Source of the DNA: an uncultured Chloroflexia bacterium
GTDB lineage: Bacteria > Chloroflexota > Dehalococcoidia > Dehalococcoidales > UBA2162
Direction: 5' to 3'
Assembly (NCBI GenBank): GCA_963739865.1
Contig: CAVUCA010000004.1
Location: 64,280-128,279, forward strand
DNA: 64,000 nucleotides
In this document: piece after piece, positions 6,033 through 10,543 of the stretch
Layout of the letters: every line of letters starts with the position of its first letter
How positions within the stretch are numbered: the stretch's first letter is position 1
The notes under the pieces: generated by a model
The model's database searches: none
Told to the model about the DNA's origin: nothing
The model's input: the letters and a program-made list of their open reading frames with translations, nothing else
Made by a program: the position numbers and the translations under genes

Positions 6033-7097
6033 CTATGATTTATGGCTAAGTAGCTTTTCGACTTCTTCAGAATCAGCGCAGTAAGAATAGAGAGTTTTTG
6101 CATCGATTATGCGCTTGGTATAGAGATTTACCAGAGATTCGTCCAGCGTAATCATACCGATGCTACGGTAGCTGCGCATCGTATTATATAACTGGTATAT
6201 TTTCCCATCACGGATAAGACTGCGTACTGCAGTATTACCAAGCATGATTTCAACAGCAGCTATCCGCCCGGAACCATCTGCCCGGGGAACCAGTGTTTGT
6301 GAAATGACGGCAATCATGAGAGAGGCTAGCCTGGTTTGAGCTAAAAACCGTTCAGCTGGAGGGAAAAAGTCAATAATCCTTTCAATTGCCTGTGGTGCAT
6401 ATGGGGCATGACTGGTGGTAAGAATAAGATGACCGGTTTCAGCTACCGAAATAGCCGCAGAGGCTGTTTCTGAATCACGCATTTCACCAACCAGAATGAC
6501 GTCAGGATCATGTCTTAACACATGTTTTAGTGCTTGAGGGAAAGAGAGCGTGTCATGACCAAGTTCACGCTGAGTAATAACCGAGTCGATGTTAGGTTGG
6601 AAATATTCAATAGGGTCTTCGATCGAGAAAATATGCCGGGTGGCGACTTTATTAAGATGATGGATCATGGCGGCCATGGTCGTTGTTTTACCGCTGCCGG
6701 TTGGGCCTGAAATAATAATGAGCCCGCGCAATTTCATGACAAGGTCCTTCATGATTTGAGGGAGTTCGAGTTCATCGATGGAAGGAATACGTGGCGGTAG
6801 AATACGAATAGCCAGACTGAGAACCCCTCTTTGTTGTGCAGCACTACATCTTAGACGAGTCCCGTCAGGCAAAGTATAACCGAAGTCCAATTCAAGTTCG
6901 CGAAGATATTTTTCGCGTTCTTCAGTAGTAGATATCAATGAAAAAGCCTCAGAAAGGTCGGCTTTGTTTAGCAATGGAAATCCATCGACAGGAACTAATG
7001 TACCATCGATACGAAAAAGCGGCCGGGCATTTGATGAAAGGTGTACATCGGATGCATTTTTAACGATGGCTTCGTCCAAGAGTTTAAAAATATTCAT
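6033..7097 (-). CDS. pilT: PilT/PilU family type IV pilus ATPase
   Basis: ASDVHL, Walker A GPTGSGKTTT, IEDPIE, DPDVILVGEMRD, AETGHL and an AIRNLIRE-like AVRSLIRD. Confidence 0.9.
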   Translation of the reverse strand: MNIFKLLDEAIVKNASDVHLSSNARPLFRIDGTLVPVDGFPLLNKADLSEAFSLISTTEEREKYLRELELDFGYTLPDGTRLRCSAAQQRGVLSLAIRILPPRIPSIDELELPQIMKDLVMKLRGLIIISGPTGSGKTTTMAAMIHHLNKVATRHIFSIEDPIEYFQPNIDSVITQRELGHDTLSFPQALKHVLRHDPDVILVGEMRDSETASAAISVAETGHLILTTSHAPYAPQAIERIIDFFPPAERFLAQTRLASLMIAVISQTLVPRADGSGRIAAVEIMLGNTAVRSLIRDGKIYQLYNTMRSYRSIGMITLDESLVNLYTKRIIDAKTLYSYCADSEEVEKLLSHKS

Positions 7098-7337
7098 CTG
7101 ACATCCTCACTACAACGACATAAATATTAAATATTACGCTCGACCAATTATGAAATATTTGAAAGTATTATAACATGTATTTACATAAAATATAATAAAC
7201 ATAGTAAAGAATATACAAATAACGCAGAAGAATAACTCATTGACAATTTATAGGAAAGCTTCGATTTTTAACAGTCGTAAGTGACGAAAATAAGGCAGGT
7301 TTGCTAAAATATGATTAATAGGTATTTGGAGGTAGAG

Positions 7338-7586
7338 ATGTCTGAGAGCACCCAAAAGAAAGTGGTGGTATATACAACTAATACTTGACCATGGTGCCAC
7401 CGGGCGAAAGAGTATCTTTCGCGTAAAGGGATAACCTTCACGGAATACAATGTAACTAATGACCGGGAGAAAGCACGAGAACTGATACAGAAATCAGGAC
7501 AGATGGCGGTTCCGGTAATACTAGTTGATGACAAAGTAGTAGTAGGATTCAATCAACCAAAACTTGATGAATTACTAATGAACTGA
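7338..7586 (+). CDS. selenocysteine-containing glutaredoxin-like protein (NrdH/YruB-like, UxxC)
   Basis: GGAGG RBS; MSESTQKKVVVYTTNT-U(TGA 7386-7388)-PWCHRAKEYLSRKGITFTEYNV...GQMAVPVILVDDKVVVGFNQPKLDELLMN. The TGA occupies the first Cys position of the CxxC motif. Confidence 0.9.
7404..7422 (+). promoter_or_regulatory. candidate bacterial SECIS hairpin
   Basis: GCGAAAGA-GTA-TCTTTCGC stem-loop beginning 16 nt after the in-frame UGA, with a G in the apical loop. Confidence 0.7.
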
Positions 7587-7596
7587 AAGAGGGATA

Positions 7597-7628
7597 CCTG
7601 CGGAGTTGATAAACAACAACTCCGCAGG
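7597..7628. terminator. hairpin terminator between the glutaredoxin and the convergent copA operon
   Basis: CCTGCGGAGTTG-N8-CAACTCCGCAGG. Confidence 0.75.
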
Positions 7629-7709
7629 AAACAGACCTGGTTATACACTCACGAAAAAAGCCGGGATAAATTTAGATAACCGGTAAAAAGTCCAGGTAAA
7701 AACAACCGA

Positions 7710-7859
7710 TTATTTATTGGAAAGAAATTTCTCTGGATCCTTATCGAAAGCACGTTTACACCCCGGAGCACAAAAATAGTATTTATTTCCTTTATATATT
7801 GAAGTCGCCGGGGCATTTTTTTCGTCTACTTGCATCTTGCATACTGGATCAATAGCCAT
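7710..7859 (-). CDS. YHS domain protein (putative copper chaperone)
   Basis: GGAGGAG RBS; MAIDPVCKM...YYFCAPGCKRAFDKDPEKF; downstream of copA. Confidence 0.9.
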   Translation of the reverse strand: MAIDPVCKMQVDEKNAPATSIYKGNKYYFCAPGCKRAFDKDPEKFLSNK

Positions 7860-7884
7860 TTTACTCCTCCAAAATCCAAACTGG

Positions 7885-10353
7885 TTAACTCCCGACGGGT
7901 TTAAACCGTTTAAGCCGTAATGAATTGCTAACGACGGTGACTGAACTAGCAGCCATTGCGGCAGCGGCCAGCATGGGATTGAGAAAACCGTAATCACCAA
8001 GGATAAAGCGGAGGGATGAGGGGACGCCGCCATTTTTAAAAACAAGGTATAAAATACCAGCAGCAACCGGTATAAGAACTACATTATAGGCAAAAGCCCA
8101 GAAAAGATTTTGCTTAATGGTCTTCATGGTACGTTTACTAAGGGCAATCGCAGTAACAATATTCTTAAGTTCTCCCCCAATCAGTGTGATATCGGCGGTC
8201 TCGATGGCAATATCGGTCCCGGTCCCGATAGCGATACCGATATCTGCCTGGGCGAGTGCCGGGGCGTCATTAATACCATCGCCAACCATAGCTACTACTT
8301 TACCTTGTTGTTGAAGATGCTTAACTTCGGCAGCTTTATTTTCAGGTAAAACCTCGGCCAAGACCCGGTCGATACCGATTTCAGATGCGATAGCGTTGGC
8401 AGTGCGCGGGTTATCACCGGTAATCATACCGACTTCGATACCCAACCGGTGTAAGGCGTTAACGGTATTGCCAGCATCAGGCTTCAAGGTATCAGCAACG
8501 GCAATCAGCCCCACAACCTCCCGCCCGATACCAATAAAAATAGTTGTCTTTCCGTTTGCTGACAGTGTATCGGCTTGTCTATCCAGCTCTTTCAGGGAGA
8601 AATCCAGTTGAGTCATCAGGCTACGATTACCCAGAACTACTTTGTTATCACCAAGTTGAGCCTCGACACCCTGCCCGGGGAGGGCATTGAATTCTACCAC
8701 AGGGACCAGTTTCAATGATTTTTCACGGGCAGCCTGAACAATAGCTTCACCAAGGGGATGTTCGGAACCATGTTCGACCGAAGCGGCGAATTGAAGTATT
8801 TCATCTTCAGTATATAAGGAAGCGGTAACGATATCGGTGACCTTTGGTTTTCCGAAAGTCAGGGTGCCGGTTTTATCCATGAGGATAGTGTTGATCCGAT
8901 GAGCTTTTTCCAGTGTTTCCGCATTCCGGATAAGGATACCGTAAGCGGCACCCTTACCAGTCCCCACGATAATCCCGGTTGGTGTCGCCAATCCCAGGGC
9001 GCACGGACAGGCTATGATGAGCACTGCGATAAAATTAAGCAGGGCATAAGTAAAAGACGGTGCAGGCCCTAAAAAGAACCATACAAGAAATGTAACTAAT
9101 GCGATGATGATGACAATTGGCACGAAATATCCAGCGACGATATCGGCGAAACGCTGGATAGGAGCTTTACTGCCCTGGGCTTCTTCTACCAGTTTGACAA
9201 TACGGGCAAGCATCGTATCTTTGCCAACTTTCGAGGCTTCAAACTGGAAACTACCGGTCTTATTAATCGTAGCGCCAATCACGGTATCCCCAACATTTTT
9301 TTCAATTGGGAGGCTTTCCCCGGTGATCATGGCTTCGTCGATACTTGAATGTCCCTGACGAATAATACCATCGACCGGAATCCGGTCTCCGGGGCGGACG
9401 AGCAACAGGTCACCCGGTTGAACATCGTCGACGGGAACCTCAGTTTCCTGCCCATCACGGACCAACACGGCGGTTTCAGGTTGCATCCCCACTAGTTTTT
9501 TTATCGCTTCGGATGTTTGCCCCTTTGCCAGGGCTTCCAGATAGCGTCCCAGCAGAATCAAGGTAATAATGGACGCCGAAGTATCGAAATATGAGTGCGG
9601 CATGACACCGCCGATTGTGAATATCGCAGGAAAAAGGATGGCAGTGACGCTGTATATATATGCAGCGGAGGTGCCGACGGCAATCAGGGTATTCATATCG
9701 GCAGTACGGTGCTTCAGTGCTCCCCACATACCACGGTAAAACCGCCATCCGGCCCAGAATTGTACGGGTGTTGCCAGTGCCCACTGCAGGTAATTACTAC
9801 CGGGGAAAGAAGGAGCAAAACCAAGCCCCATAACCAGAACTGCCATGATAGCAGCAAAAATAAACCGGATTTTCAGCTTCTTGATTTCAATCCCTGTATC
9901 AGAAGCAACCCCCGAAATGGGTTCACTTTCGGGTAGAAGATCATAACCGGCATCTCTAGCAGCACGTCTCAAGTCATTGAAAGTTACGGTATCCAGGTAT
10001 TCAACCGTGACTCTTTCTGAGGCCAGGTTAACAGAAACGGTAATTACACCAGGGACGAGAGAAAGAGCATTTTCAACACGGGCAACACAACTTGCGCAGG
10101 TCATCCCATGAACCGGAAATACGGATCTCTTCGAGGCGACTTCATACCCTAATTCAGAAATAACGGATTTGATTTTAGCCAGATCAACCAGTTCAGGATC
10201 GAATTCCGTAACAGCGCTTTCTGTAGCCAGATTAACCTGACAAAAAGAAATACCCGGGATTTCCCGAAGCCCTTTTTCTATTATTTGGGCACAACTAGCA
10301 CAGGACATACCGCGAATCGGTATATTAATCCGCCTTAATTTTGGATCAGGCAT
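7885..10353 (-). CDS. copA: Cu(I)-translocating P1B-type ATPase
   Basis: Two GMxCASC metal-binding domains, [27 protein letters not shown] and MAASS. Start is 10353 (ATG) or 10377 (GTG). Confidence 0.95.
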
Positions 10354-10543
10354 AGTACCTACCAGTACCTTTTTCACGTGTAGATTTGAGTTACTAGGTT
10401 GATTATAGCACCGTTAACATGTAGGAATAGGACATTAGTCACATTATGATTGAGAGGGAAAAGAATATTCAGACATCAAAGGAATGAAGACAACAGATTC
10501 GGTACATTAACGGTATAGATTCATAATCCGAAGGTTCTTTTTC

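Follow-up and report, generated by a model that had tools for sequence, protein, structure and literature searches.

Glutaredoxin (Grx) is one of the bacterial protein families in which selenocysteine (Sec, U) is known to occupy the active site. Table 1 of PMC1794560 lists it as a selenoprotein family (PF00462, UxxC) with three Sec members, giving Geobacter sulfurreducens, Alkaliphilus metalliredigenes and Moorella thermoacetica as examples, and both PMC9312934 and PMC13188914 count it as experimentally verified, with reference to Kim et al. 2011. We analysed a gene of this type at positions 7338-7586 (+) of the window, i.e. the whole stretch of 64,000 nucleotides (nt) of DNA from an uncultured Chloroflexia bacterium (contig CAVUCA010000004.1). 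An earlier reading of the letters, referred to below as the original prediction, had proposed a hidden glutaredoxin-like selenoprotein at this place and had taken it as established that Sec-containing glutaredoxin-like families are known, a premise borne out by the sources just cited. In our analysis the element is very probably a functional monocistronic gene encoding an 82-amino-acid (aa) thioredoxin-fold redoxin of the YruB/Cp9 type, with the active site Sec17-Pro-Trp-Cys20 and with UGA read as Sec. The selenoprotein family to which the gene belongs was known before, and no new mechanism is involved.

Two described proteins are the natural points of reference. In Clostridium oremlandii, cGrx1 has Sec natively in an active site of the form U(or C)PXC; it was crystallised with this Sec replaced by Cys (PMC7642778). 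YruB, that is Cp9 of Clostridium pasteurianum, is a redoxin of 75-80 aa with mostly a C-P-[YW]-C site; its gene is flanked by cp34, for an NADH-dependent thioredoxin reductase (TrxR), and by cp20, for a peroxiredoxin, and Cp9 carries electrons between these two proteins (PMC3720550). According to the same source, the Cp9, NrdH and BC3987 groups have a conserved Pro and a conserved Gly-Phe pair in common. As to the class of organisms, very large selenoproteomes have been reported from Dehalococcoidia, and the top ten of BSepDB includes two genomes of this class, with 49 and 46 selenoprotein genes (PMC13326102). No paper naming a Sec-glutaredoxin in Dehalococcoidia specifically was found; the tables of BSepDB and all supplements were outside the search, and the gene may already be catalogued.

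Reading frame, hairpin and orthologues

The coding sequence starts with an ATG at 7338, 5 nt downstream of a Shine-Dalgarno motif read from the sequence (GGAGG, 7328-7332, +), runs open from 7338 to 7583 and is closed by a TGA stop at 7584-7586. Its sole internal TGA, codon 17 (7386-7388), falls on the first Cys column of CPxC and opens the U-P-W-C active site. The TGC of codon 20 (7395-7397) encodes the resolving Cys of that site, invariant (C20) in a 25-sequence alignment and Cys in 37/37 orthologues. When TGA is translated as U, the motifs VVVYTTNT-U-PWC, AKEYL, MAVPVILVD and VVGF are all present. The original prediction had described a ribosome-binding site, an ATG and a full glutaredoxin-like frame on the plus strand, with a single in-frame TGA at the catalytic N-terminal Cys, and each of these elements was found again. 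The list of open reading frames (ORFs) under translation table 11 contains no plus-strand ORF of at least 30 aa over the gene. The remark of the original prediction on an antisense shadow in the ORF track was also right, because only the antisense ORFs 7304-7552 and 7248-7400 are listed across the gene.

The terminal TGA was considered as a second Sec codon and rejected: readthrough would give KRDTCGVDKQ and meet no stop two codons later, and the corresponding codon is TAA or TAG in 20/26 of the orthologues that have the internal TGA. Among the 26 orthologues with the internal TGA, the frame ends at a common position with TAG in 13, TAA in 7 and TGA in 6, and there is no conservation past it. 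The TGA at 7584-7586 is a real stop, since TAA or TAG stands there in 20 of these 26 orthologues.

Within the coding sequence, at 7404-7422 (+), lies a hairpin of the type of a bacterial Sec insertion sequence (SECIS). Its arms, GCGAAAGA (7404-7411) and TCTTTCGC (7415-7422), form 8 perfect pairs and enclose the apical loop GUA (GTA, 7412-7414). There are 15 nt between the TGA and the hairpin, and the first stem base is the 16th after the TGA, exactly where the original prediction had placed an 8-bp hairpin with a GTA loop. The criteria for bacterial SECIS (bSECIS) elements in the legend to Fig. 2 of PMC13188914 are a loop of 3-9 nt with G in the first two loop positions, a stem of 4-16 bp, a spacing of 16-37 nt and a minimum free energy (MFE) of -7.5 kcal/mol or lower. 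The hairpin falls within all four: it has a 3-nt loop starting with G-U, a stem of 8 bp, 23 nt from the UGA to the loop and, folded alone, an MFE of -8.6 kcal/mol. In the genome holding the window (13 contigs, 2.99 Mb, 89% complete) the 15-nt core of this SECIS occurs twice, with 0.011 occurrences expected, and both copies lie 20 nt past an in-frame TGA in Grx-like genes. By itself, from one sequence, the hairpin is weak evidence; it stands far beyond chance because of the comparative data on orthologues.

A protein search of 41 related genomes gave matches in 36. The orthologue set consists of all matches with E <= 1.9e-22, i.e. 37 loci in 33 genomes; 31 weaker rows were excluded, which represent longer paralogues with frames of 170-203 aa, a single fragment and glutaredoxin-like genes of more distant kind. 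The active-site column holds TGA in 26 loci of 22 genomes and TGT or TGC in 11 loci of 11 genomes, which is the Cys/TGA alternation that had been anticipated for this column. The TGA-form loci are spread over several families, and their amino-acid sequence is conserved downstream of the TGA, with C20, Y26, L27, V58-P59 and G70-F71 invariant. No degeneration is seen 3' of the TGA: conservation of the protein extends as far as its end, where 20 of the 26 TGA forms stop with TAA or TAG at the same place.

The two classes of orthologues differ in the segment that forms the hairpin. At the same offset and with the same 8+3+8 geometry, 20 of the 26 TGA forms have 8/8 pairs and the remaining six have 7/8, whereas the 11 Cys forms have 1-5 of 8. 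Codons +6 to +11 of the TGA forms read GCG AAA/AAG GAG TAT CTT TCG, with their synonymous sites frozen. The third-position entropy over these six codons is 0, 0.71, 0, 0, 0 and 0.24 bits in the 26 TGA forms, and mostly about 1-1.8 bits in the codons flanking them; in the 11 Cys forms, which keep the same peptide with varied codons, it amounts to 0.95-1.87 bits. The single recurrent stem change among TGA forms, AAA to AAG in 5 loci, converts an A-U pair into G-U. A stem that is frozen only in TGA forms is the signature to be expected if selection acts on an RNA element within the reading frame where UGA needs recoding, and only there. It is these frozen synonymous sites, together with the contrast between Sec and Cys forms, that argue for the predicted SECIS.

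A maximum-likelihood tree of the 37 proteins, built on 73 columns, leaves 23 of its 34 inner branches open, and three are well supported. This tree needs seven changes between Sec and Cys, of which the well-supported branches force only one; because the gene tree is so poorly supported, we make no claim on the direction or number of the switches. Some relatives carry two or three TGA-form copies: L026, L043 and L045 (G002), L041 and L049 (G006), L038 and L058 (G020). Two loci may be copies in decay, namely L058, with a protein insertion and one SECIS stem mismatch, and L055 (G009), in which the C-terminus is shortened. A separate case is the Cys form at L030:1536 onward (G005, a genome without a selA match), where 5/8 hairpin pairs are retained and the codons read GCC AAG GAG TAT CTA TCC. 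What remains here could be the relic of a SECIS, decaying after a Sec-to-Cys switch, a direction that the gene tree does not orient.

Selenocysteine machinery and the weighing of alternatives

That the organism has the Sec trait had been presumed in the original prediction, and all four genes sought are in the genome, each above its curated cutoff. On contig C8, selA (298609-299943, 552.8 bits) is directly followed by selB (299981-301816, 334.9 bits), and the gene of tRNA-Sec, selC, lies in the same cluster (302647-302738, 74.3 bits; called tRNA-SeC with anticodon TCA by ARAGORN). The fourth gene, selD, is located on contig C1 (229085-230011, 395.6 bits) and has an in-frame TGA of its own (G-U-ACK), which is followed by a GGUCC-GGA-GGACC hairpin. 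In the related genomes, a selA match was obtained in 20 of the 22 with TGA forms (19 above the cutoff and, in G022, a fragment at a contig end) and in 4 of the 11 with Cys forms (G014, G027, G032 and G040). We treat this pattern as consistent support and not as a statistical test, because the relatives are non-independent and the genomes incomplete.

The Sec genes and the SECIS signal are present and under selection. On this basis, the UGA at 7386-7388 would be decoded as Sec during translation: SelB carrying Sec-tRNA(Sec) would bind the mRNA hairpin at 7404-7422 and deliver the Sec-tRNA to the ribosome at the UGA, the charged tRNA being supplied by the action of selA, selB, selC and selD.

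Assembled reads agree with the reference at the critical codon. A 288-nt contig from run X6, a metatranscriptome library, spans 7331-7618 with the TGA intact, and the sole change listed for it within the ORF is a synonymous G>A at 7403. A contig from run X1 (DNA), which could be the source sample, spans 7303-7571, again with the TGA intact. These two contigs, and the TGA found at the same column in 25 other loci, dispose of the suspicion that the codon is a sequencing error. None of the three outcomes that, according to the original prediction, would have counted against it (no Sec machinery, TGC or TGT in the reads, decay past the TGA) was observed. Three short contigs from the RNA library X19 match 7382-7429 only, that is the TGA and the SECIS block, and then continue into unlike flanks; this fits genes of relatives which share the TGA-plus-SECIS block as their most conserved nucleotide stretch. 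Run X5 gave no contig over the stretch, which says nothing on absence.

Several observations weigh against the reading of the gene as Sec-decoded, or at least temper it. The 71-nt region of the hairpin has a z of -1.42, and 18 of 200 shuffles fold equally well. Among 20,000 random TGA trinucleotides of the genome, 250 (1.25%) precede a perfect stem of at least 8 bp that falls within the same bSECIS limits. A scan of 7200-7700 with Rfam at E <= 10 returned five matches, all with E > 4 (snoRNA and CRISPR-repeat models) and none to a SECIS model. Classical compensatory covariation is absent, because the invariant stem never varies on both sides. Two genomes with TGA forms, G003 (86% complete) and G037 (72% complete), have no selA match. 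The X6 contig, its origin in an RNA library notwithstanding, is no proof of transcription, because DNA can occur in such libraries. Finally, it is from the genes and signals described above that we infer actual insertion of selenium at the UGA.

Three other explanations of the internal TGA may be considered, all of which fare much worse. A single base change turns TGT or TGC into TGA, and ORF calling with table 11 does break the gene, so that a dead glutaredoxin gene, whose Cys codon has mutated to a stop, comes to mind. Such a pseudogene is very improbable: the TGA recurs at the same column in 26 loci of 22 genomes from several families with the sequence conserved past it, synonymous sites of the SECIS are frozen in TGA forms only, the ribosome-binding site, start and stop are intact, and the Sec machinery is at hand. 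We give still less credence to an alternative genetic code in which TGA is read as Trp or another standard amino acid. Trp (W) does appear at the Sec column in 6 of 15 fetched database relatives (P0002, P0003, P0005, P0006, P0009 and P0011), but this is what a gene caller set to TGA=Trp is expected to produce, and these W copies in public protein sets are a calling artefact, a mistranslation; P0009 also runs past its stop. Eleven orthologues have the catalytic Cys of CPxC at this column, where a Trp would abolish the activity of a thiol oxidoreductase. Moreover, TGA itself ends this gene and 6/26 of the TGA-form orthologues, the other 20 ending with TAA or TAG, and a complete, dedicated Sec system with a matching SECIS is present. 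Equally remote is the notion that the antisense ORF 7304-7552 (-) is the real gene and the plus frame its shadow. It is the sole ORF of at least 30 aa listed under table 11 across the gene, and an antisense frame of at least 80 aa recurs in 14 of 20 loci. That frame recurs, however, because the sense gene is conserved; neither antisense ORF has a Pfam match at E <= 1, and for the plus frame the matches to curated families lie at 1e-21 to 1e-28.

Protein family, neighbourhood and proposed reductant

For profile scoring, C stood in for U. The protein belongs to the Pfam family Glutaredoxin (PF00462; 3.4e-21, 75.7 bits vs a cutoff of 22.9), and among NCBIfam models it passes the cutoff of TIGR02196 (GlrX_YruB, the YruB/Cp9 type) with 99.4 bits vs 88.55. 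The model of glutaredoxin 3, TIGR02181 (GRX_bact), matches at 8.6e-19 with 67.6 bits, under its cutoff of 90. NF041212 (Uxx-star glutaredoxin-like (seleno)protein) is passed as well, with 70.6 bits vs 66, well below the TIGR02196 score. Members of that family presumably carry, as its name implies, Sec three residues from the C-terminus (U-x-x-stop). An assignment to the Uxx-star type was rejected, the only Sec here being at residue 17, not near the C-terminus. NrdH-redoxin was rejected too: TIGR02194 gives 52.3 bits vs 85.75, UPWC stands in place of C-[VMI]-Q-C, and nrd genes are missing from the neighbourhood. The features of the C-P-[YW]-C type are all found, namely U-P-W-C with Sec for the first Cys, a length of 82 aa, and invariant P59, G70 and F71. 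Named relatives in the databases are entered as 'glutaredoxin family protein [Dehalococcoidales bacterium]'.

An AlphaFold2 model computed from the 25-sequence alignment has a thioredoxin fold, with a mean predicted local distance difference test score (pLDDT) of 81.1. Its order of elements is beta-alpha-beta-alpha-beta-beta-alpha (strands 9-13, 34-38, 60-63 and 66-69; helices 18-30, 43-53 and 73-81), and residue 17 immediately precedes the first helix, 18-30. The best match in the PDB is 7c10, 'Dithiol cGrx1', with a Foldseek E of 8.2e-08, template modelling (TM) scores of 0.80/0.87, a root-mean-square deviation of 1.5 A and 53% identity; phmmer finds the same entry at E 3.7e-21.

In this genome the redoxin gene stands alone on the plus strand. 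Upstream, a PilT-type ATPase is encoded at 6033-7097 (-). On the other side, and convergent with the redoxin gene, lie a heavy-metal P-type ATPase bearing two HMA domains (7885-10377, -) and, directly downstream of it, a small YHS-domain protein (7710-7856, -; 6.6e-17). We compared the flanks of about 1.5 kb of 20 related loci. A convergent ATPase is present in 8/20: this genome and the four relatives from its genus account for five of them, and three further loci share it. Another feature, also found in 8/20 loci (6 Sec and 2 Cys forms), is that the redoxin gene is immediately followed, on its own strand, by a gene of about 305-333 aa. Its product scores 332.9 bits with the AhpF C-terminal part model TIGR03140 and 299.6 bits with the TrxR model TIGR01292, both under the equivalog cutoffs. 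Within the same flanks no adjacent peroxiredoxin gene was seen in any of the 20 loci. Elsewhere in the genome there are three TrxR-like genes (G000:C10:133820-134719, C6:135117-136028 and C5:110491-111396), with 36-38% identity to the neighbour gene of the relatives. The peroxiredoxin family is likewise represented by three genes, and an in-frame TGA is found in two. These two, AhpC-TSA matches at G000:C8:246319-246720 (-) and G000:C10:305406-305780 (+), are probably further selenoproteins, because each carries one in-frame TGA.

In the reaction that we envisage, Sec17 would be the nucleophile attacking a disulfide or sulfenate of the substrate, Cys20 would resolve the intermediate to a selenenylsulfide, and the protein would then be re-reduced by a TrxR-like flavoprotein, as in the Cp34/Cp9/Cp20 chain of Clostridium pasteurianum. 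With some reservation, we favour such a flavoprotein, and not glutathione, as the reductant, because a TrxR-like neighbour is present in 8/20 loci, P59 and G70-F71 are invariant, gshA and gshB were not found in this 89%-complete genome, and genes of TrxR-like and peroxiredoxin proteins exist elsewhere in the genome. Peroxiredoxin-type proteins are plausible clients.

It is also possible, if unlikely in our estimation, that the gene is Sec-decoded and its product nevertheless a classical glutathione-dependent glutaredoxin like cGrx1, not a TrxR-dependent protein of the Cp9/NrdH type; this alternative concerns the functional layer only. For the closest solved relative, cGrx1, at 53% identity, the published description names glutathione as the final reductant, by which it is re-reduced, and MsrA as the protein that cGrx1 itself reduces (PMC7642778), and Grxs are described as glutathione-dependent in a 2026 review. 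In this genome no TrxR-like or peroxiredoxin gene adjoins the redoxin gene, which tells against the TrxR-dependent reading. The match to GRX_bact at 8.6e-19 points the same way, but its 67.6 bits remain below the cutoff of 90 while TIGR02196 passes. Against glutathione there is also the TrxR-like gene that adjoins in 8/20 loci, and the invariant G-F motif is common to the TrxR-dependent NrdH, Cp9 and BC3987 groups. Neither gshA nor gshB was found in the genome, which is 89% complete, these being the only two families of glutathione synthesis searched for. A pairing of cGrx1 type with MsrA was rejected, since PF01625 gave no match in the same 89%-complete genome; a control search with this family matched 12 of 14 genomes.

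Ten nt past the stop, between the convergent genes, a perfect hairpin of 12 bp with an 8-nt loop and no U-tract occupies 7597-7628 (-24.6 kcal/mol, z = -5.88, with 0/200 shuffles as good). A terminator consensus scan called no intrinsic terminator, and the hairpin was not called because it lacks a T run; it is the probable transcript end. The contig from the X6 RNA library ends within it, at 7618, which by itself is no proof. On the upstream side there is a weak sigma-70-like match at 7281-7310 (+), composed of GTGACG, an 18-nt spacer and TAAAAT preceded by TG. Its position is plausible and does not constitute evidence; a promoter consensus scan of 7050-7950 found two sites vs 3.1 expected from shuffles, so the match is no better than chance.

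A further Grx-like ORF was noticed about 1.6 kb before the window start, at G000:C4:62145-62666 (-), equivalent to L065:346-867 (-). It comprises 173 aa, with one in-frame TGA at codon 11 (SSPT-U-VYC), a Glutaredoxin domain (9.1e-18) and a PDZ_6 domain (3.1e-11), and passes no NCBIfam cutoff (TIGR02196, 80.7 vs 88.55). The same SECIS core, GAAAGA-GTA-TCTTTC, is found at the same offset from its TGA, and eight related genomes contain frames of similar kind, 170-203 aa long and each with a single TGA. This Grx-PDZ ORF may encode an undescribed selenoprotein. A wider scheme, which we regard as doubtful, would make the redoxin gene in this Dehalococcoidales lineage the middle link of a largely selenoprotein relay, leading from a TrxR/AhpF-C-like flavoprotein through the Sec-containing Cp9-type redoxin to a Sec-peroxiredoxin, with the Grx-PDZ selenoprotein derived by duplication along with the SECIS core. 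If this were true, the 19-nt SECIS frozen across families and paralogues would represent a lineage-specific SelB recognition signal within the conserved A-K-E-Y-L-S peptide.

Annotation value and comparison with known systems

The main value of these results is a correction of annotation, the gene being invisible to ORF calling with table 11. The expectation that standard pipelines will miss it held for the table 11 list and for the 6/15 relatives in which W replaces Sec; it is too general in view of dedicated selenoprotein resources such as BSepDB (PMC13326102). A Trp at the catalytic position in public sets would mislead functional or structural inference. Close relatives divide here into 26 Sec and 11 Cys forms, the state tracks selA, and the SECIS shows up purely in synonymous sites that are frozen. 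The family is a clean textbook case, and the dataset could serve as a benchmark for SECIS and selenoprotein predictors. The redox inventory of this uncultured, anaerobic lineage of the Dehalococcoidales type also gains a thiol/selenol redoxin.

Of the described systems, NrdH-redoxin shares with this protein the small glutaredoxin-like fold and the G-F motif, and it is reduced by thioredoxin reductase (PMC3720550). It differs in its profile (52.3 vs 85.75 bits), in the UPWC found here instead of C-[VMI]-Q-C and in the nrdIEF context, which this locus lacks. The likeness to cGrx1 (Clostridium (Alkaliphilus) oremlandii OhILAs; PDB 7c10, 7c12 and 7c13) consists in a small single-domain glutaredoxin fold with a native Sec as the first residue of U-P-x-C. 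The site is, however, UPWC here vs CPHC in the crystallised Sec-to-Cys form of cGrx1, the selenoprotein MsrA, its proposed client, was not found in this genome, and the organisms are of different phyla, the named relatives here being Dehalococcoidales.

With Cp9/YruB the protein has in common the passed cutoff of TIGR02196, a length of about 80 aa, the type of the motif, the conserved Pro and Gly-Phe and, in 8/20 related loci, a TrxR-like neighbour. Unlike Cp9, it has Sec in place of the first Cys, and its gene stands alone in this genome, with neither TrxR nor peroxiredoxin adjacent. The adjacent reductase of the relatives, moreover, scores under both the TrxB and the AhpF equivalog cutoffs. 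With the catalogued Sec-containing Grx family, finally, the redoxin described here shares both the Pfam family, PF00462, and the UxxC motif, and it comes from a genome of the Dehalococcoidales type.

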